Source of the DNA: an uncultured Bacilli bacterium
GTDB taxonomy: Bacteria > Bacillota_I > Bacilli_A > RF39 > UBA660
Length of the DNA stretch: 54,041 nucleotides
Assembly: GCA_947601485.1 (NCBI GenBank)
Contig: CANQGF010000003.1
Coordinates: 1 to 54,041, forward strand
Direction: 5' to 3'
Numbering within the stretch: the first letter of the stretch is position 1; each line of letters starts with the position of its first letter. A program made the translations under genes and the position numbers. The notes under the pieces were generated by a model, which searched no databases, was not told the origin of the DNA, and was given only the letters and a program-made list of their open reading frames with translations. Positions 139-35,498 of the stretch are shown piece by piece.

Positions 139-2781
139 TTATAAGTTCCTCCCATTTTTGATAGCGGCTTGTGCAGCAGCAAGTCTTGCAATAGGTACTC
201 TATATGGAGAACATGATACATAAGTAAGACCTATATTATGACAGAATTCAACACTTGAAGGTTCTCCACCATGTTCACCACAAATACCAAGTTTAATATC
301 AGGACGAACACTCTTACCTTTTTCAACAGCCATTTTAACTAATTCACCAACACCTGTTTGATCAAGTTTAGCAAATGGATCAATTTCATAAATTTTATTT
401 TGATAATAACTATCTAGGAATTTAGCAGCATCATCTCTAGAGAAGCCAAATGTCATTTGAGTTAAATCGTTAGTCCCAAATGAGAAGAATTCAGCTTCAG
501 TAGCAATTTTATCAGCTGTAATAGCTGCTCTTGGAATTTCAATCATTGTACCGATATGATATTTCATATCACTATTTTTCTCACGTTTTACTTGTTCTGC
601 TGTTTCAATAACGATATCTTTAACAAATTTTAATTCTTTAACTTCACCAACTAAAGGTATCATTATTTCTGGAACGATATCATAACCGTCTTCTTCTTTA
701 ACTTCAATAGCAGCTTCCATTAAAGCTCTTGTTTGCATTCTAGCTATTTCTGGATATGTAACAGCAAGTCTACAACCTCTATGTCCCATCATTGGGTTAA
801 ATTCATGTAATTCACTACATTTTTGCTTGATTTTTTCAGCAGATACACCCATATCTTTAGCTAATGCTTCAATTTCTTCATCCGTATTAGGTAAGAATTC
901 ATGAAGAGGTGGATCAAGATAACGAACAGTCATTGGAAGACCTTTAAGTTCTTTATACATTGCTTTAAAGTCACCTTTTTGGAATGGAATTAAAGCATCT
1001 AAAGCTTTTTCTCTCTCTTCAACTGTATCAGCTAAAATCATTTCTCTAATTTTAGGGATACGATCAGCTTCAAAGAACATATGCTCTGTTCTACATAAAC
1101 CAATTCCTTCAGCTCCAAGTTCTACAGCTTTTTTAGTATCTCTTGGATTATCAGCATTAGTTCTAACTTTTAATTTACGATATTTATCAGCCCAGGCCAT
1201 AATTCTACCAAAATTACCTGTAATTGTAGCTTCTTTAGTTTCGACATCACCTAAATATATTTTACCAGTATTACCATCAAGGCTAATATAATCTCCTTCT
1301 TTAAAGGTATGTCCACCAAGTTCAAAAGTTTTAGCTTCTTCATTAATCTTAATGGCACCACAACCTGCAACACAACAAGTACCCATACCACGAGCAACAA
1401 CAGCGGCATGGCTAGTTCTACCACCACGAACAGTTAGAATACCTTGACTTGCTACCATACCTTCAATATCTTCAGGTGTTGTTTCAAGTCTAACTAAAAC
1501 AACTCTTTCGCCTTTGCCACCTTTGCCTTCTCTTTTAGCATCTTCAGCTGTAAAGACAACTTTACCAGCAGCTGCTCCAGGAGATGCTGGAAGTCCTTCA
1601 CCAATAACTGTAGCATTTTTTATTGCATCAACATCAAATGTTGGATGTAATAATTGATCTAGACTTTTAGCTTCGATTCTTAAAACTGCTTCTTCTTCAC
1701 TAATCATTCCTTCATCAACTAAATCACAAGCAATCTTAATTGCGGCTTGAGCAGTTCTTTTACCATTTCTAGTTTGTAAGAAATATAATTTACCATTTTC
1801 AATAGTAAATTCCATATCTTGCATATCACGGTAATGATCTTCTAGTTTTTGAGCAAGAGACATAAATTCCGTATAGCATTCTGGTAAATCTTCTTGTAAT
1901 TTAGTAATTGGTTGAGGAGTTCTTACACCCGCAACTACATCTTCACCTTGGGCATTAATTAAGTATTCACCATATATACCTTTTTCTCCGGTTGCAGGAT
2001 TTCTTGTAAATGCTACTCCCGTTCCTGAAGTATCACCCATATTACCAAAGACCATTGATTGAACATTAACAGCAGTTCCCCAATCACCTGGAATATCATT
2101 CATTCTACGATAAACGATAGCTCTTGGATTATCCCATGAACGGAATACGGCTTTAACTGCTCCAAGTAATTGTTCATGAACATCTTGTGGGAATTCTTCC
2201 CCATTCATATTTTCTTTATAAACTTGTTTAAATCTTGTAACTAATTCTTTTAAATCATCAGTTGTAAGTTCATTATCATAAGTAATACCCTTTTCATGTT
2301 TTACTTCATCAATAATTTTTTCAAAATAGCTTTTTGGCACTTCCATTACAACATCTGAATACATTTGAATAAAACGTCTATAAGAGTCATATGCAAATCT
2401 TGGATTATTAGTCTTTTTAGCAAACCCTTCAACTGATTTATCATTTAAACCTAAATTTAAAATGGTATCCATCATTCCTGGCATACTAGCTCTTGCACCA
2501 CTTCTAACAGATACTAAAAGGGGCATTTCTTCATCGCCAAATTTTTTACCCACCATTTCTTCTAGTTTTTTTAATGCTTCTTGCATTTCTTGTAATATTT
2601 CATCACGTATTACTTTTCCATTATTATAGTAATCAGTACACGCTTCTGTCGTTATTGTAAATCCTTGAGGAATAGGTAACCCTAAATTAGTCATTTCCGC
2701 TAAATTAGCTCCCTTACCACCAAGTAATTCACGCATATCTTTGTTTCCTTCGGAAAACAAATAAACATATTTTTTTGCCAT
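139..2781 (-). CDS. ppdK: Pyruvate, phosphate dikinase
   Basis: 880 aa; LLGGKGANLAEM N-terminus, phospho-His motif GGRTSHAAVVAR, FSFGTNDLTQ and GICGEHGG; GGAGG RBS. Confidence 0.98.
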   Translation of the reverse strand: MAKKYVYLFSEGNKDMRELLGGKGANLAEMTNLGLPIPQGFTITTEACTDYYNNGKVIRDEILQEMQEALKKLEEMVGKKFGDEEMPLLVSVRSGARASMPGMMDTILNLGLNDKSVEGFAKKTNNPRFAYDSYRRFIQMYSDVVMEVPKSYFEKIIDEVKHEKGITYDNELTTDDLKELVTRFKQVYKENMNGEEFPQDVHEQLLGAVKAVFRSWDNPRAIVYRRMNDIPGDWGTAVNVQSMVFGNMGDTSGTGVAFTRNPATGEKGIYGEYLINAQGEDVVAGVRTPQPITKLQEDLPECYTEFMSLAQKLEDHYRDMQDMEFTIENGKLYFLQTRNGKRTAQAAIKIACDLVDEGMISEEEAVLRIEAKSLDQLLHPTFDVDAIKNATVIGEGLPASPGAAAGKVVFTAEDAKREGKGGKGERVVLVRLETTPEDIEGMVASQGILTVRGGRTSHAAVVARGMGTCCVAGCGAIKINEEAKTFELGGHTFKEGDYISLDGNTGKIYLGDVETKEATITGNFGRIMAWADKYRKLKVRTNADNPRDTKKAVELGAEGIGLCRTEHMFFEADRIPKIREMILADTVEEREKALDALIPFQKGDFKAMYKELKGLPMTVRYLDPPLHEFLPNTDEEIEALAKDMGVSAEKIKQKCSELHEFNPMMGHRGCRLAVTYPEIARMQTRALMEAAIEVKEEDGYDIVPEIMIPLVGEVKELKFVKDIVIETAEQVKREKNSDMKYHIGTMIEIPRAAITADKIATEAEFFSFGTNDLTQMTFGFSRDDAAKFLDSYYQNKIYEIDPFAKLDQTGVGELVKMAVEKGKSVRPDIKLGICGEHGGEPSSVEFCHNIGLTYVSCSPYRVPIARLAAAQAAIKNGRNL

Positions 2782-2854
2782 TTTATAAGCCTCCTAAACA
2801 ATATTTTAACACAGAGACTAAAATTCACCAAAGAATATGTTAAATTTTTGACAT

Positions 2855-3766
2855 TTATTGACGTTTTTTATTAGGATGAAATCTTAAATAAGCACTGCGA
2901 AGTCTTTCATTACTAACATGAGTATAAATTTCCGTAGTACTTAAGTTTTCATGGCCTAACATCTCTTGTACACTTTTTAAATCTGCTCCATTATCTAATA
3001 AATGAGTGGCAAAAGAATGTCTTAAAACATGGGGAGATATTTTATGCTTTACACTTGATTTACTAATTATTTTATCTATTATATATTCAATACTTTCTCG
3101 ACTTAACTTATTACCAAATTTATTTAAAAGCAAATAATCAGTAGGCTTTTTAATAAATTCATATCTTATTTTAAGATAATTATCTAATAAATTTTGGCAA
3201 GACTTACCATAATAAGCTATTCTTTCTTTACTGCCTTTCCCCATAACCTTAATAGTCATATCATTTGTATTAATATCATTAATCTTAATATTAGAGGCTT
3301 CACTAACTCTAATACCAGTTGAATATAAAAGTTCAAAAATAAATTTATCGCGAATATCTTCTTTAGCATCTTCCTTCATTTCCAATATTATTTCATCAAT
3401 TTCTACAATACTTAAATAATTTGGCAATTTTTTAGGAATTTTAGGATTTTTAACTCTTTTAAATACATTACTATCAATAACTTTAATTTCCACTAAATAA
3501 TTATAAAAACTTCGAAGAGCACTTAAATGTCTAGAAATTGTCTTATTAGTAAATTTTAAATTATCTAAATATTTTAAAAAAGACATAACATCATCTTTAG
3601 ATATTGTTAAATAATTTATATGTTTTAAACTTAAAAAGTCTTTATATAGTAAAAGATCTGTTCTATAAGAATCTCTTGTTAAAGAACTATAATTTAATTC
3701 ATATTCAATATATTCTAAATATTTATTTATCGCTTCATCTATTTTCATAATTTTATTATACATCAA
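2855..3766 (-). CDS. xerC: Chromosomal tyrosine recombinase of the XerC/XerD type (C vs D uncertain; start may be 3763 or 3745)
   Basis: YSTGIRVSE, GKGSKER, HVLRHSFATHLL, LGH and catalytic Tyr in TEIYTHV; 303 aa with an N-terminal SAM-like domain. Confidence 0.85.
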   Translation of the reverse strand: MMYNKIMKIDEAINKYLEYIEYELNYSSLTRDSYRTDLLLYKDFLSLKHINYLTISKDDVMSFLKYLDNLKFTNKTISRHLSALRSFYNYLVEIKVIDSNVFKRVKNPKIPKKLPNYLSIVEIDEIILEMKEDAKEDIRDKFIFELLYSTGIRVSEASNIKINDINTNDMTIKVMGKGSKERIAYYGKSCQNLLDNYLKIRYEFIKKPTDYLLLNKFGNKLSRESIEYIIDKIISKSSVKHKISPHVLRHSFATHLLDNGADLKSVQEMLGHENLSTTEIYTHVSNERLRSAYLRFHPNKKRQ

Positions 3767-3780
3767 AAAAAGTTAGATGA

Positions 3781-4347
3781 CTATGCAACTTCATCTAACT
3801 TTTCTAATTTTCTAATTTTTTCTTCTTCTTTTCTTCTTTTAATTTCATCACTTAACATAAGGTAAATAGCTCTACCATTAGAATATGGTATTTTATTTAT
3901 TGAATTAAATACTTCATGATAATTATTAGAATTTAATGCACTTTTAAAGTTTCTTAAAGAGTCATAAAAATAATCCCCATCAATATATTTTTCTAAAGTT
4001 TTTTTATAATAACCATACAATTTATCTTTTAAACTATTTTCAAATTCTAGATGACCACCACTAATTTCATTAATTATTTCATAATCTTCTTTTGAAAAAG
4101 CTGGTAGTTTATGTTTCATATTACTAATAATTTTAAAGGTCCCTTTTAAATACTCTGGAGCAACAAGATTATTTTTAGCAATTAAATCTTTTAATTCATC
4201 CACACTATATTGCATAGTAAAGGCATCAATTTCTCCAATCGAATTAGGACAATCTACATTTGCATTAGGAATTCTTTCTATTTCGACAACATTATAATCC
4301 CCATTACGTAACTCTAAAACTAAATTATAAATTATTATTCCATTCAT
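3781..4347 (-). CDS. Hypothetical protein, orphan family (paralog of 52450..53205)
   Basis: ORF with AAGGGG RBS before ATG at 4347 and its own promoter TTGACA-N18-TATAAT (4376-4405). Confidence 0.8.
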   Translation of the reverse strand: MNGIIIYNLVLELRNGDYNVVEIERIPNANVDCPNSIGEIDAFTMQYSVDELKDLIAKNNLVAPEYLKGTFKIISNMKHKLPAFSKEDYEIINEISGGHLEFENSLKDKLYGYYKKTLEKYIDGDYFYDSLRNFKSALNSNNYHEVFNSINKIPYSNGRAIYLMLSDEIKRRKEEEKIRKLEKLDEVA

Positions 4348-20489: not shown

Positions 20490-20753
20490 TTATCTTCCTA
20501 ATGAATAATCGTCTCCTAAAATTTCATCAACAAAATGATAATTTTCTTCATATACTTTAGTTTCATTAATTCTTTCCTCTTGATGCATTTCACCATCTAA
20601 ACCAATTATATTTAGAATTTCAGTTATAGGACAAACTGTCTCTTCATGATCTATTAATGCATCATTTATAACTAATCCACAAGCTGTAGTTGCACCTACT
20701 AAGATAGTAGCTACCCCTGCTTTAAAAACAATATTTTTAACATCAATTTTCAT
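20490..20753 (-). CDS. Small hypothetical protein with N-terminal signal/TM segment
   Basis: 87 aa; strong GGAGG/AAGGAG RBS; hydrophobic N-terminus; DH-x4-CP motif. Confidence 0.75.
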   Translation of the reverse strand: MKIDVKNIVFKAGVATILVGATTACGLVINDALIDHEETVCPITEILNIIGLDGEMHQEERINETKVYEENYHFVDEILGDDYSLGR

Positions 20754-20803: not shown

Positions 20804-20828
20804 AAAAAAGTTCGACTTTGCGAACTTA
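20804..20828 (-). terminator. Terminator after tRNA-Ser
   Basis: Minus strand AAGTTCG-CAAAGT-CGAACTT followed by TTTT. Confidence 0.75.
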
Positions 20829-20842
20829 AAAATCCTTAAATA

Positions 20843-20933
20843 TGGCGGAGCAGGAGAGATTTGAACTCTCGCGACAGTTACCCATCCTACACCCTTAGCA
20901 GGGGCGCCTCTTCAGCCTCTTGAGTACTACTCC
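20843..20933 (-). tRNA. tRNA-Ser (anticodon GCT)
   Basis: GGAGTAG/CTGCTCC acceptor stem, anticodon loop CT-GCT-AA, long variable arm, GTTCAAATC T-loop, encoded CCA; promoter TTGACT-N17-TAAACT upstream. Confidence 0.97.
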
Positions 20934-21019: not shown

Positions 21020-22585
21020 TTATAATTCATTAAAATCACTCATTTTATGCAAATTATTTTGATATTCATTAATAATTAAACTATTTGTAGTTAAAAGCAT
21101 ACCTGCAATGGATGTTGCATTACTAACTTCTTCTAATAAAACACTAGTAGGATCTAAAACCATGGTTGTACTTATTTCTTCAAACTTATCACTTTTAATA
21201 TTATATACTTTATTATAGTTTTCTTGTTCTATTTTTTCTAAAATTCCAGCATCATCTTTACCAGCATTATTCAAAATTGTTTTAACTGGTTCCATTAAAG
21301 CTTCTTTTATAAGTTCATCTCCTATAGTTAATGGCTTTAAATTAGCGCTAATTTTGCTTAAAGTTACTCCTGCCCCAACAGAAATTCCTTTGGAAGCTTC
21401 ACTAATTGCCCATAAGGCATCATCAAAACGCATCTTTTTTTCTCTTCGTTCTAGGTTTGTTAAGCCACCAACAAAAATATTGGCACTACCTTTTTCAAAC
21501 ATGGCAAGTCTTTTTGCTATAAATTCCGTATCTAAAGAATTAGAATCATTACTTTTTAATAAAGCATTATTTAATTCAATAACTCTATCTTTAATTTTAT
21601 TATTAAATTTAAAATTAAATAAAACTTGGTTTTCATTAATTAAAACATTATCTACTTTACCTAAAACATTTAAAGAAAACTTATTATTAGTAACAATCTC
21701 TGCATCACTTATAATTCTTAAATCTTCATATATGTCTAATTTTTTTAAGCCATACATAGGATTATTTAGTAAAATTATTTTTAAATCATTTTCCATATTT
21801 ATATTTAATATTTGTTCAGTTAAATAATCATTATAACTATTTGCCATTATAAGCAAATTTTCTTTAGTTAATAAAATATTATTTAATATTTCCGCAATAT
21901 CTTCTAAACTTTCTAAATGACCATTAATAAGAAGAATTAAACTATTATCCAAAATTATTTCTTTTTCATCTTTTAAAAAATAAGGTGAAGAAAAAATTGC
22001 ATCTACAACATACCCTTTTAAATAGGTAACGCTTGTTTCAGCACTTACCCCTTCTTTAATATTAATTGCACTCCTGTTTAATATTTTTAAATATACATCA
22101 CTTATAATATTACCTATTTCTTCCTCATTACTTGAAATAGTCGCAATATATTTTAATTCTTCTTTGGAAGGTATTTTGGAAAGTTTCAAAATTTCTTTTT
22201 TAACACCAACTAAACTTTTTAACAATTCTTCTTTAATGCTAATAGGACTAATACCTTCTTTTATTAATTTTTTACCATTATTAAAAAGACTTTGTAAAAG
22301 AACTAAAGTTGTTGTAGTTCCATCACCCACTGTTTCATTAGTTTTAATAGAAGCTTCTTTAGCAAGTGAAAGAATTGTATTAATACACTCATCATCACTT
22401 TCAATATTTTCCGCAATGGTAACGCCATCATTAGTTACAAATGGGCTAAAAGTTGAATGATCGATAATAGCGTTACTTCCTTTTGGACCTAACGTACTTT
22501 TAACTGTATCACAAAGAAGATTAACAGCTTCCTCCATTTTAATACTTAATTCATTACCTTTAACAACTTTTTTCAATTTCACCAC
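21020..22585 (-). CDS. groEL: Divergent group I chaperonin (GroEL/Cpn60-like)
   Basis: TLGPKG, TNDGVTIA, GDGTTT, EKKMRFDDAL and LDPT retained; apical motifs degenerate; no GGM tail; no adjacent groES; start codon uncertain. Confidence 0.88.
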   Translation of the reverse strand: MVKLKKVVKGNELSIKMEEAVNLLCDTVKSTLGPKGSNAIIDHSTFSPFVTNDGVTIAENIESDDECINTILSLAKEASIKTNETVGDGTTTTLVLLQSLFNNGKKLIKEGISPISIKEELLKSLVGVKKEILKLSKIPSKEELKYIATISSNEEEIGNIISDVYLKILNRSAINIKEGVSAETSVTYLKGYVVDAIFSSPYFLKDEKEIILDNSLILLINGHLESLEDIAEILNNILLTKENLLIMANSYNDYLTEQILNINMENDLKIILLNNPMYGLKKLDIYEDLRIISDAEIVTNNKFSLNVLGKVDNVLINENQVLFNFKFNNKIKDRVIELNNALLKSNDSNSLDTEFIAKRLAMFEKGSANIFVGGLTNLERREKKMRFDDALWAISEASKGISVGAGVTLSKISANLKPLTIGDELIKEALMEPVKTILNNAGKDDAGILEKIEQENYNKVYNIKSDKFEEISTTMVLDPTSVLLEEVSNATSIAGMLLTTNSLIINEYQNNLHKMSDFNEL

Positions 22586-23315
22586 TCACTTCCAAAATAT
22601 TATGCCAATATTTTTTAGGCATAAAGTTCATACGACAACGTTCATTAGTTCTTTCTTTAATTCCCACTGTGTCATAAAATGTTTTCCATAATCTTTCCAT
22701 ATCTTTTTCACTGTCACTTAATATTAAATCTTTAATATTAAGCTCATCTTCTTTTAAAATGTAAAAATCTTTTTTATCATATACACTTATTATTTTTCTT
22801 TTTTCATCTTTTATAAGCCAATATTCATTTTTTAATCTCTTCTTAAAATGAACACTAATAATTTCTAAAATATCATTATCAGGGCTAATTGTAGCATACA
22901 ATATTTTATTTTTAAGTTCTTTAAACCTAACAAAGCCCTTAAACCGATGGGCTTCATTACCGACTTTCTTACATATTCTCAAAGTTTCATTCACACATTT
23001 TAAATTGCGCATTTTAACTAAATTTTCCCGATATTTAAAAAAGTTTAAAAGATAATAATAAATTATTAATTCTTTATTATCTTCATTTGATAAAAACACA
23101 TAATAAATTTGATGCATATTATATTTACCAAAGTAATTTATAAATTGGGAAGTTAGATCTTTATTATCAAGATTTAAATTGATAACATAATCAAATAAAT
23201 TACCTAAATATCCTTCTTTTTTAATATTGCTTGGCTTAATTTTATTTTGAAAAAAATAAGCTAATAAATTTAGTAAAGCATTAAATTCACCATTATATAT
23301 ATAAATATTATTCAT
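22560..23315 (-). CDS. Putative DNA repair protein, TIGR03915 / DUF4130 family
   Basis: EAHRFKGFVRF, HFKKR, and LWKTFYDTV...ERTN...MPKKYW C-terminus; adjacent to the TIGR03916-type radical SAM gene. Confidence 0.92.
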   Translation of the reverse strand: MNNIYIYNGEFNALLNLLAYFFQNKIKPSNIKKEGYLGNLFDYVINLNLDNKDLTSQFINYFGKYNMHQIYYVFLSNEDNKELIIYYYLLNFFKYRENLVKMRNLKCVNETLRICKKVGNEAHRFKGFVRFKELKNKILYATISPDNDILEIISVHFKKRLKNEYWLIKDEKRKIISVYDKKDFYILKEDELNIKDLILSDSEKDMERLWKTFYDTVGIKERTNERCRMNFMPKKYWHNILEVSGEIEKSC

Positions 23316-24527
23316 TTAAAACAACCTCAACTGTTCTACATTACTTACTAATTTATTTGCTGAATCAAGAGAAACTAAATTAGCTTCAATAAAGTTTTTA
23401 CTAAATAATTCTTGATTAAGATTATATTTACCATTGCAAGTAATGAAATAATTTGCTCTTTTTAAAACAACTCCCATCTTTTTTAAATCATTAAAAGTGA
23501 GCTTAAAATATCTTCTTGATTTAATTATTCTTTTTGCTGATGTTACACCTATACCCGGAACTTTTAATAAATCATTATAACTACAAGTTGTAACTTCTTT
23601 GGGAAATTCATCTAAATGTCTTAAACTCCATGAAGCTTTAGGATCTACTAAAATATTAAAATTAGGGTTTTGTTTATCTAATAAATCATCAACTTTAAAT
23701 CCATAGTATCTTAAAAGCCAATCAGCTTGATAAAGACGATTTTCTCTTTTTAAAGGTGGCATTTTTAAAGTAGGTAAAAGATTATCCTTATTAACAGGAA
23801 TATAAGCGGAATAAAAAACTCTTTTTAATTTATAACTATTATACATTCCTTCACTTTTACTCATAATATCCAAATCGGTTTCATTAGTTGCCCCGATAAC
23901 CATTTGGGTACTTTGTCCAGCTGGAACATAACTCTTGCTTCGGTTGTCCCTAACAAACCCCATAATTTCACTTACTTTATTCATATTTTTATTAGGAGCC
24001 AAAAGTTTTAAACCATTTTCCGTAGGTAATTCAACATTTGCACTCAAGCGATCAACTAAACTGCCTAATTTTTTTAACAAAAATGTACTAGCGCCGGGAA
24101 TAGCTTTAGCATGAATATAACCTCCAAAATGATATTTATAACGTAAAAGACTAATAGTTTTAATTAAAAGTTCCATTGTATAATCAGGTGATTTTATAAT
24201 ACCAGAACTTAAAAATAAACCTTCAATATAATTACGACGATAAAAATTAATAGTTATTTCACATATTTCTTCCGGAGTAAAAATAGCTCTTTTAACATTA
24301 TTACTACGACGATTAAGGCAATATTTACAATCAAAAATACAAATATTGGTTAAAAGAATTTTTAAAAGAGAAATACATCTTCCATCTGATGCAAAAGAAT
24401 GGCAAATACCACTTAAATGGGCATTTCCTAAACCAGAGTTATTAATTCTAGTGCTACCACTTGAAGAACATGAAGCATCATATTTGGCACTATCAGCTAA
24501 AATTTGTAATTTCTCTTTTAATTCCAT
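23316..24527 (-). CDS. Putative DNA modification/repair radical SAM protein (TIGR03916 family)
   Basis: ILADSAKYDASCSSSG, GICHSF-DGRCISLLK, CxxxCxxC (CIFDCKYC), RENRLYQADWLLRYYGF, C-terminal HhH (KVPGIG); GGAG RBS before ATG 24527. Confidence 0.95.
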   Translation of the reverse strand: MELKEKLQILADSAKYDASCSSSGSTRINNSGLGNAHLSGICHSFASDGRCISLLKILLTNICIFDCKYCLNRRSNNVKRAIFTPEEICEITINFYRRNYIEGLFLSSGIIKSPDYTMELLIKTISLLRYKYHFGGYIHAKAIPGASTFLLKKLGSLVDRLSANVELPTENGLKLLAPNKNMNKVSEIMGFVRDNRSKSYVPAGQSTQMVIGATNETDLDIMSKSEGMYNSYKLKRVFYSAYIPVNKDNLLPTLKMPPLKRENRLYQADWLLRYYGFKVDDLLDKQNPNFNILVDPKASWSLRHLDEFPKEVTTCSYNDLLKVPGIGVTSAKRIIKSRRYFKLTFNDLKKMGVVLKRANYFITCNGKYNLNQELFSKNFIEANLVSLDSANKLVSNVEQLRLF

Positions 24528-24546
24528 TTTTAACATCTCCAGTTTT

Positions 24547-24586
24547 ATTATAGCAAACATTTTTACGCTTTGCAAACAAAAGTTCA
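24547..24586 (-). promoter_or_regulatory. Sigma-A promoter overlapped by LexA (SOS)-like boxes
   Basis: TTGCAA(24570-75)-N17-TATAAT(24547-52) with extended TG; GAAC-TTTT-GTTT over the -35 and degenerate CGTAAAAATGTTTG in the spacer (Firmicute consensus GAAC-N4-GTTY). Confidence 0.65.
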
Positions 24587-24653
24587 AAAAAACATTGCCA
24601 ATTTTTAGGCACAAAAAATATCACCCTTAAATATAATACTATAGGTGATATTT

Positions 24654-34404: not shown

Positions 34405-35401
34405 CTTTTCCCTCTATTTTATCTACCATATAGTTAAGAAGTGAAACAACTCTTTCATATTCCATTCTCTTTGGCCCAATAATAGCTATTGTTCCTTCTT
34501 CTCCCCCAGATTTATATTTTCTTTTTATAACGGTAACATTATCATCAAAGTTGCTTTCTTCACCAATATAAATTTTTAAATCTTCACTACCATCAATACT
34601 ATCAAGCATTTCTTTAAAAGAATTATCTTCTAATTTGGAAGCTATTCTTTTTATACTATCCGTATTATCATATTCTGGTTCTTTTAGTAGATTAACTCTT
34701 CCTGATACATGAATATTGGTATTATGATGTAAAAAATCATTAAAAGCATCATAGAAAATATTGTAAACTGTTTCATAATCTTTAACTTTTTTGGCAATAA
34801 TTGGCTTAATTTCAAATTCTAACTTTTCAGCCACATTATTGATTGGAGTTCCAACAAGCATTTTATTGATCATCTCTCCCGTTTTAACAACTTCTAAAAT
34901 ATCCGTATCAGTTGGTAAAATAAATTGCTTATTTTCTACTACGCCTTTATCCGTACAAACGATAGCAATAATTTTTTGTTCATCTAAAGCAATCAGATTA
35001 ATTTGCTTTAAATAATTATCACTACTATTTTTACCTAAAACAATCGAAGTATAATTAGTCATATCACTAATTATTTCCATGCATTTAGTTACTGCATCAT
35101 TAACTTCTAATTCATTATTAGCAAAAATCGTTTGTAGTTTTAGCATATCTTCCCCAGTTAAATCTTTAGGTTGCATTAAATGTTCAACATAATATCTATA
35201 GCCTTTTTCACTCGGAATCCGACCACTTGAAATATGATTTTTTTCAATATAGCCCATATTCTCTAATAAAGCCATTTCATTTCGAATCGTAGCGCTTGAA
35301 CATTTAAGCTTTTTACATAAAGAATTACTACCTACAGGTTTAACTGTTTTAACATAATTTTCAACAATTTCTTTTAATAATTCTTTTTTTCGATCATCCA
35401 T
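34388..35401 (-). CDS. hrcA: Heat-inducible transcription repressor HrcA
   Basis: PVGS, SSATIRNEM, HISSGRIPS-KGYRYYV, IIGPKRMEY. Confidence 0.97.
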   Translation of the reverse strand: MDDRKKELLKEIVENYVKTVKPVGSNSLCKKLKCSSATIRNEMALLENMGYIEKNHISSGRIPSEKGYRYYVEHLMQPKDLTGEDMLKLQTIFANNELEVNDAVTKCMEIISDMTNYTSIVLGKNSSDNYLKQINLIALDEQKIIAIVCTDKGVVENKQFILPTDTDILEVVKTGEMINKMLVGTPINNVAEKLEFEIKPIIAKKVKDYETVYNIFYDAFNDFLHHNTNIHVSGRVNLLKEPEYDNTDSIKRIASKLEDNSFKEMLDSIDGSEDLKIYIGEESNFDDNVTVIKRKYKSGGEEGTIAIIGPKRMEYERVVSLLNYMVDKIEGKDDGRE

Positions 35402-35424: not shown

Positions 35425-35498
35425 TTAGCACTCGTTCTTTTCAAATGCCAATCTCATTATAATATTATGTTTAGCACTTGTCAATATATGAGTGCTAA
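35425..35498 (-). promoter_or_regulatory. Two CIRCE operators and the sigma-A promoter of hrcA
   Basis: TTAGCACTC-N9-AAATGCCAA (35425-35451) and TTAGCACTT-N10-GAGTGCTAA (35471-35498); TTGACA(35479-84)-N17-TATAAT(35456-61) on the minus strand. Confidence 0.92.

Follow-up and report, generated by a model that had tools for sequence, protein, structure and literature searches.

We describe a three-gene operon of an uncultured Bacilli bacterium in which a divergent homologue of the chaperonin GroEL, here termed the Cpn60-like protein, is encoded behind two DNA-repair-associated proteins. The operon lies in a window of 54,041 nt from contig CANQGF010000003.1 (assembly GCA_947601485.1); the DNA is 26% GC, and coordinates without a contig label refer to this window. 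On the minus strand, the genes for a radical S-adenosylmethionine (SAM) protein of the TIGR03916 family, a DUF4130/TIGR03915 protein, and the divergent Cpn60-like protein abut or overlap, in that order. The features of the locus, listed in the direction of transcription, are as follows, with LexA sites scored by a position weight matrix (PWM).

24573..24586, no strand assigned: LexA (SOS) box, reading TGAAC-N4-GTTTG on the minus strand; PWM score 13.9; overlaps the -35 hexamer
24554-24567: weaker second LexA site; PWM score 10.5
24575-24547, minus strand: promoter-like site with TTGCAA, a 17-nt spacer, and a TG-extended TATAAT; 10 of 12 consensus matches
23316..24527, minus strand: radical-SAM protein, TIGR03916, 403 aa, with a CxxxCxxC cluster motif, a helix-hairpin-helix region, and a C-terminal QLRLF
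22560..23315, minus strand: DUF4130/TIGR03915 protein, 251 aa, assigned by family scores; predicted partner of the radical-SAM protein
21020..22585, minus strand: Cpn60-like group I chaperonin homologue, 521 aa, ATP site intact, lacking both a Gly-Gly-Met (GGM) tail and a GroES partner
20843..20933, minus strand: tRNA-Ser(GCT), between the Cpn60-like stop codon and the first terminator
20808..20827, minus strand: first intrinsic-terminator-like hairpin 3' of the operon

Both gene junctions were seen as the initial annotation of this DNA had claimed. The TAA stop codon of the radical-SAM gene directly abuts the ATG of the DUF4130 gene with a 0-nt gap, and the Cpn60-like start codon (GTG at 22585 or TTG at 22576) overlaps the 3' end of the DUF4130 gene by 17 to 26 nt. 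The radical-SAM open reading frame (ORF) spans 23316-24614 on the minus strand, but its true start is the ATG at 24527, which matches the start Met of its relatives. The promoter-like site at 24575-24547 is the sole one immediately 5' of this start, and no terminator-like sites were found on the minus strand between 24527 and 20827. Promoter-like matches were no more common than in shuffled sequence of this low GC content (25 found vs. 31.3 expected), so an internal promoter for the Cpn60-like gene may exist. The tRNA-Ser(GCT) gene has a promoter-like site of its own (20981-20953), and transcripts of the operon may extend into it as well. A lipoprotein-looking ORF at 20490-20753 was considered as a hidden co-chaperonin and discarded, since it is present again at just 1/44 loci.

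The radical-SAM protein scored 614 bits against TIGR03916 (cut-off 343.5), and the DUF4130 protein scored 213.6 bits against TIGR03915 (cut-off 112.25) and 160.6 bits against PF13566. Both are clear members of the module composed of radical-SAM (TIGR03916), DUF4130 (TIGR03915), and uracil-DNA-glycosylase (UDG)-like (TIGR03914) proteins; in this operon, however, the third position is occupied by a chaperonin homologue. The DUF4130 protein carries no extra domain, and neither a UDG-like TIGR03914 gene nor a fusion had a match in the genome, so the partner to which, according to the initial annotation, this pair is usually linked is missing here. In 31 aligned radical-SAM sequences, residues C63, C67, and C70 of the CxxxCxxC motif are invariant. 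Likewise, Q399 and L402 of a C-terminal QLxLF motif are invariant, with L400 and F403 present in at least 90% of the sequences; QLRLF forms the last five codons of the gene (23319-23333, minus strand), and the tail is present in distant lineages too, sometimes with a short extension. The motif resembles the bacterial beta-clamp-binding motif, and from its sequence it would probably tether the radical-SAM enzyme to the replisome. The radical-SAM and DUF4130 proteins are both basic (isoelectric points of 9.5 and 9.1), whereas an acidic value of 4.9 was obtained for the Cpn60-like protein (median of the family 5.08, n = 55). A large DUF4130/radical-SAM interface, a heterodimer, and a nucleic-acid substrate are predicted in a recent preprint (bioRxiv 10.64898/2026.08.19.745780), and the association of the pair with a UDG-like protein is stated both there and in PMC3765255. 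The latter also connects the DUF4130 pair with the SOS response and with SplB-like photolyases, and the DNA-damage-response genes reported for Acinetobacter include a radical-SAM gene and a TIGR03915 gene (PMC12392091).

The Cpn60-like protein matched PF00118 (Cpn60_TCP1) over residues 26-505 with 148.9 bits (cut-off 34.3) and aligned with solved GroELs at 27-31% identity (E about 1e-61 to 1e-69). It fell under every NCBIfam GroEL cut-off (TIGR02348, 310.1 vs. 582.1 bits); its best model was NF009487 (346.4 vs. a cut-off of 352), and the family is covered by none of the NCBIfam models. An AlphaFold2 model, for which 39 family sequences were used, had a predicted local distance difference test score of 90.5 and a predicted template modeling (TM) score of 0.81, with the tail (residues 509-521) predicted to be disordered. 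In Foldseek comparisons, the model gave TM-scores of 0.84-0.89 to GroES-bound GroEL subunits (up to 0.89, 5opx_A) and of ~0.62 to apo subunits. On the strength of this model, the protein is predicted to keep the equatorial-intermediate-apical fold of GroEL.

Forty-one family members were aligned with E. coli GroEL and compared at the positions of the nucleotide site, hydrophobic groove, salt bridge, and ring contacts of GroEL. Residues T30, G32, D52, D87, G88, T89, T90, D398, G414, G416, N479, and D495 are invariant in all 41 members, in line with the ATP-site motifs that the initial annotation had recognized. A GGM tail, whose absence it had also noted, was found in no member; the family tails read ...LIINEY...[DE][YF]x[DE][LI]. 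The R197-E386 salt-bridge pair is lost, its residues being replaced mostly by T/S and T/K, respectively, and the ring-ring contact positions are variable. In the apical groove, positions Y203, F204, L237, L259, and V263 stay hydrophobic. The mean majority-residue frequency was 0.69 in the equatorial domain, 0.61 in the intermediate domain, and 0.50 in the apical domain. Substitution rates were obtained from the 39 loci that retained three full-length genes. In nine close pairs, the ratio of nonsynonymous to synonymous substitution rates (dN/dS) was lowest for the radical-SAM gene (0.035-0.07), with values of 0.11-0.20 for DUF4130 and 0.11-0.25 for the Cpn60-like gene. The Cpn60-like gene is thus fast-evolving yet selected. 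Over the compared loci, the mean Kimura distance was 0.99 for the Cpn60-like protein vs. 0.36 for the radical-SAM protein.

In FastTree and quick IQ-TREE phylogenies, which are affected by composition bias and long branches, the linked Cpn60s formed a comb-like series beside the GroELs of Bacilli; the proteins of genomes G127 and G136 were the least divergent, and those of the G576/P0130 type formed a separate nearby clade. A phage origin of the Cpn60-like protein was rejected, the best phage GroELs being 29-34% identical and no closer than bacterial ones, with no relative found in viral contigs. Fusion ("Rosetta stone") partners were also looked for and rejected; the long matches P0102, P0084, P0060, and P0066 proved to be Cpn60 domains only, with no DUF4130. 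Proteins P0060 and P0066 of the representative library, ~1080 aa and from GC-rich sources, each hold two tandem Cpn60 units with Cpn60_TCP1 as the only Pfam domain, an observation unrelated to the operon.

The assembly that contains the window comprises 1.37 Mb in 91 contigs and is 94.7% complete. Among the sequencing runs listed for this DNA, those of DNA are gut metagenomes, three of them perhaps the source sample, and none is of RNA. It was compared with a genus sample of 42 genomes and an order sample of 151 genomes (each at least 90% complete, 86 genera); in control genomes, the GroEL and Cpn10 searches found both families where expected. The Cpn60-like gene is the sole GroEL homologue of its own genome. 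The initial annotation had noted that no groES is adjacent and had considered a canonical groES-groEL pair elsewhere; no such pair was found, and Cpn10/GroES (PF00166) was not found anywhere in the genome. A GroEL over cut-off was found in 0/42 genus genomes and 0/151 order genomes. Cpn10 was found in 0/42 genus genomes, in 1/151 order genomes, and in none of G576, G127, and G136. The lone order match (G086:C1:32930-33220, a 124-aa frame) sits in a genome without a GroEL-like gene and may be phage-derived or a contamination. The Cpn60-like gene does not behave as an ordinary housekeeping GroEL either, in keeping with the initial annotation, since 121/151 genomes of the order lack it and it occurs nowhere but next to DUF4130. 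Chaperonin-free mollicutes are already known (PMC5810989; PMC13245659); in a survey of 59 mollicutes (PMC5810989), all 13 with GroEL also had GroES.

Within the genus, DUF4130 scored over cut-off in 28/42 genomes and the Cpn60-like gene was present in 27, in each case (27/27) directly 3' of DUF4130 and on the same strand. The lone genus genome with DUF4130 and without the Cpn60-like gene is G045, where the locus ends at a contig edge, and the gene was found in none of the other 14. In the order sample, the identical 30/151 genomes (17/86 genera) hold both DUF4130 and the Cpn60-like gene, and the two are neighbours in every case. Among species-representative genomes, the order radical-SAM, DUF4130, Cpn60-like was found at 42/42 loci encoding a close relative of the Cpn60-like protein, overlapping junctions being maintained, and at 20/20 further loci of the order. 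Flanking genes vary among genomes, and RecD2 lies 3' of the triad in only 4/42. At locus L069 (G127:C6), the minus-strand region 421-3989 located 3' of the triad encodes a DUF2357 protein, a 316-aa ORF, and a 503-aa ORF (P-loop-like GTGKT, without a Pfam match), a cluster resembling restriction or defence genes.

Outside the taxonomic family of this bacterium, DUF4130 was found in 0/265 genomes of a class sample. In the phylum sample, it occurred in a single genome from a different family, G576 (2.1 Mb, 97% complete), where it forms a triad with overlapping genes and where no other GroEL was found. Two Hsp20 genes lie directly 5' of this triad on the same strand (L089, G576:C19, 4052-4456 and 4501-4872, minus strand), and no LexA-box match was present within 120 nt of its radical-SAM start. 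A metagenome set was composed of the best 80 of 393 loci matched by the DUF4130 alignment. Seventy of these 80 carry a Cpn60 gene immediately 3' and 6 have <100 nt of room (70/74 evaluable loci). The 70 include deep lineages, one being the P0130 type, which is 34-41% identical to E. coli GroEL, and another having a Cpn60 of 482-490 aa on 23%-GC contigs; a metagenome scan with the Cpn60-like protein of G576 returned no matches. Across loci, the distances of any two of the three proteins are correlated (r = 0.81-0.86), and partial correlations of 0.53 with DUF4130 vs. 0.56 with the radical-SAM protein discern no closer partner of the Cpn60-like protein. At locus L063, all three genes have decayed together. 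The three-gene order described in the initial annotation is conserved wherever the Cpn60-like gene occurs, that is, in the genus, the order, the related loci, the metagenomes, and G576.

A palindrome, [CT][GA]AAC-N4-GTT[TC][GA], is located 5' of the radical-SAM gene in 29/31 related loci, mostly 55-59 nt before the start codon, where it overlaps the -35 hexamer. It resembles the LexA box of Gram-positive bacteria. A PWM was built from the sites upstream of the radical-SAM gene in the related loci and in the window, and hits with a score of at least 10 were counted in the own genome. The scan gave 50 hits, and the top ones, whose gene identities were checked with NCBIfam, lie 5' of two pol IV genes, pcrA/uvrD, lexA, recA, uvrA, ruvB, xseA, and dnaX; the operon's own site at 24573-24586 is among these top hits. 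The lexA gene itself is encoded at C22:5790-6401. These genes form a compact predicted LexA regulon, whose sites, given as contig:position, are:

C43:8503, C4:189, C1:38433, C22:6453, C38:4427, C9:27730, C2:2944, C30:13107, C10:9116: predicted LexA regulon sites in the own genome

No gene was identified downstream of the strong sites at C1:40836, C1:40470, C10:11012, and C60:7425. In the separately gathered metagenome loci with a complete upstream region, a site was present within 130 nt in 58/66, vs. 17/5000 random genome windows. Strong LexA-box sites were also seen at L172, a locus that lacks the Cpn60 gene, which suggests that SOS control belongs to the radical-SAM/DUF4130 pair and that the chaperonin gene joined this pair. 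The LexA box at the promoter directly supports the DNA-damage module that the initial annotation had proposed as one of its readings, and an SOS operator on this operon agrees with what PMC3765255 and PMC12392091 report on DUF4130/TIGR03915. Heat-shock control of the usual kind was looked for as well. The only site in the window resembling CIRCE (controlling inverted repeat of chaperone expression) is at 35425-35451, 5' of hrcA (34415-35398), and further CIRCE-like inverted repeats with 2-4 mismatches were found at C4:29283, C7:4843, and C42:127. The Cpn60-like gene is therefore without CIRCE in a genome that has HrcA and CIRCE, as first annotated.

The explanation that fits best, to which we give about even chances of being right, is that the operon encodes a chaperonin that is induced by the SOS response, works independently of GroES, and is dedicated to the radical-SAM/DUF4130 enzyme. 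The radical-SAM, DUF4130, and Cpn60-like genes would constitute one LexA-repressed operon, and DNA damage would de-repress its promoter, as suggested by the overlap of the LexA box with the -35 hexamer. The basic radical-SAM protein and DUF4130 would then form a DNA-acting enzyme, which the clamp-binding-like QLxLF tail probably brings to the replisome. The Cpn60-like product could be an ATP-hydrolysing descendant of group I chaperonins that works without GroES, and it may fold, assemble, or re-activate the radical-SAM/DUF4130 pair in cells without a general chaperonin. Four observations together favor this proposal: a one-way dependence, a selected ATPase, no general chaperonin, and a shared SOS operator. 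The dependence appears strict because every intact Cpn60-like gene found was accompanied by the radical-SAM/DUF4130 pair. In four relatives without the Cpn60-like gene, 6-8 radical-SAM domain matches were found (8 in the own genome), together with one or two Y-family polymerase genes in each (4/4). Within this lineage, radical-SAM enzymes and translesion polymerases as classes thus do without a chaperonin, and any dependence would be specific to the TIGR03916 enzyme. A precedent for the principle is found in E. coli, where GroE interacts with UmuC, keeps it from being degraded, and is required for Pol IV to reach normal levels (PMC6590174); SOS proteins can therefore be chaperonin-dependent.

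Several points weigh against this proposal. The absences were judged from samples of metagenome-assembled genomes and mean "not found in those searched". Radical-SAM/DUF4130 pairs are widespread in bacteria with ordinary GroESL, as the control genomes illustrate, and 4/80 metagenome loci have room for an adjacent Cpn60 gene and lack it; these hold the most distant DUF4130s (33-36% identity). The canonical folding of obligate clients requires the GroES lid, which is absent here, although a lid non-homologous to GroES may be present. The client-binding apical domain is the least conserved region of the Cpn60-like protein (0.50 vs. 0.69 in the equatorial domain), and 2/9 groove positions are polar in most members, L234 being mostly S/A and V264 mostly S/N. 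In addition, split or shortened Cpn60-like genes stand beside intact radical-SAM and DUF4130 genes at G100/L080, G149/L081/L061, and L151; among these copies, one is split with most of the apical domain gone, one is split by a frameshift, and one lacks the N-terminal part. Forms of 488 aa without ~25 apical residues occur at G002:C7, G007:C40, and G018:C6. Such variants may represent pseudogenes, errors of assembly, or forms devoid of an apical domain; lying beside intact partners, they suggest either that the dependence is perhaps not absolute or that the assemblies are in error.

Alternatively, and as the main rival reading, the Cpn60-like protein could be a working subunit of the repair machine, that is, an ATP-driven remodeller or scaffold acting with the native radical-SAM/DUF4130 proteins at damaged DNA, which we regard as somewhat unlikely. 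Such a subunit might clear or unfold proteins stuck on DNA or reset the enzyme after turnover, roles that we hold with the same reserve. In its fullest form, equally doubtful, the ring would be an integral, damage-induced ATP motor that accompanies the clamp-tethered enzyme and either acts at stalled forks, where its targets would be proteins or protein-DNA adducts, or recycles the radical enzyme. The tight translational coupling of overlapping genes would suit a subunit, as would SOS control in place of heat-shock control, the position of the gene in the slot that a UDG-like gene occupies in other lineages, and the disappearance of both the allosteric R197-E386 pair and the residues usually conserved at ring-ring contacts. 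DNA binding is moreover reported for one GroEL homologue, M. tuberculosis GroEL1 (PMC2731897); the Cpn60-like protein, however, is acidic like GroEL (isoelectric point 4.9), which makes direct DNA binding unlikely. Its apical surface shows little conservation, which one would not expect of a fixed native interface, and most radical-SAM/DUF4130 systems function without such a subunit. We consider it unlikely that the protein is a general SOS stress chaperonin, for example for Y-family polymerases, that is merely located in this operon. The stabilization of UmuC by E. coli GroE and its effect on Pol IV levels (PMC6590174) would be in line with that role, as are the two pol IV genes with LexA boxes in the own genome and the partly kept hydrophobic groove (positions Y203, F204, L237, L259, and V263). 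Nevertheless, relatives without the Cpn60-like gene keep their Y-family polymerases and radical-SAM matches, and a general helper would not be expected to come and go strictly with DUF4130 in the same 30/151 genomes.

The linkage might also be historical, a GroEL gene having been captured once beside the pair, after which the block spread or persisted while the chaperonin slowly decays. The patchy distribution over 17/86 genera, the 0/265 count outside the family, the fast evolution of the Cpn60-like protein (Kimura 0.99 vs. 0.36), and the several split or shortened copies are what such a history could leave behind. We find it very unlikely, given a dN/dS of 0.11-0.25, an ATP site that is invariant in 41/41 members down to 43% identity, intact reading frames in several deep lineages, and overlapping junctions that have been kept. 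The anti-phage reading of the initial annotation, in which the triad would be a conflict module of that or another kind, is highly improbable. In its favor, the downstream neighbours at G127/L069 include the DUF2357 protein and a large ATPase-like ORF. On the other hand, none of the three proteins had a PADLOC match, no relatives were found in viral contigs, no phage relative exceeded 34% identity, the flanks vary among genomes, and the LexA box is common to core repair genes.

The dedicated chaperonin that we propose can be set beside several known systems. With canonical GroEL/GroES of the E. coli type, the Cpn60-like protein shares the three-domain fold, the nucleotide-site residues, and acidity; it differs in having no GroES, a sub-equivalog score, no GGM tail, the R197-E386 loss, and polar residues at L234 and V264. 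Its gene also has a LexA box instead of CIRCE and is the last gene of a repair operon. The chlamydial GroEL2 and GroEL3 (NF038370 and NF038369) are also divergent GroELs encoded outside a groES operon; with 50.3 and 47.0 bits where the cut-offs are 600, the Cpn60-like protein is not a member of either family. The chaperonins of phages EL (gp146) and AR9 reportedly work without a co-chaperonin. They are GroEL-like too, but no more than 34% identical to the Cpn60-like protein, and none of its kind was found in viral contigs; the Cpn60-like gene is chromosomal and lies in an SOS operon (phage chaperonins, bioRxiv 10.1101/2020.02.24.962803; PMC9598537). Stand-alone groEL genes and specialized paralogues are already known (PMC5406781). 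Extra GroEL paralogues such as those of Myxococcus likewise lack a neighbouring groES and are suspected of a narrower client range, but their genomes keep a housekeeping GroEL and GroES; here, the Cpn60-like gene is the sole copy, without GroES, and tied to one operon. The GroE dependence of the E. coli SOS polymerases (PMC6590174) likewise ties a chaperonin to DNA damage proteins; there, a heat-shock GroE serves them, whereas in the present case the chaperonin gene itself is under an SOS operator. In a full-text literature search, with subscription journals and bioRxiv supplements outside it, we found no description of a sole GroEL without GroES that is third in a radical-SAM/DUF4130 operon across deep lineages and behind a LexA box.

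Chaperonins are usually seen as general, essential, GroES-dependent folding machines, to which mollicute-like bacteria are a rare exception. Here, an order of small-genome gut bacteria without a general chaperonin system keeps one fast-evolving GroEL descendant under purifying selection, only together with one repair operon, with no GroES, and behind an SOS operator. A natural chaperonin of one or a few clients would offer a way to probe what makes obligate clients and how group I chaperonins could function without a lid. It would also open the radical-SAM/DUF4130 repair system, widespread yet uncharacterised, to experiment, along with its probable clamp-binding tail. If the Cpn60-like ring were instead an ATP motor of the repair machine, the chaperonin fold would have been recruited to DNA repair and not to general folding. 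On the preferred reading of a dedicated chaperonin, heat-shock machinery would have been rewired to the DNA-damage response; that the Cpn60-like gene has survived nowhere but at the end of a repair operon predicted to be induced by DNA damage suggests that its product works specifically for the repair enzyme.

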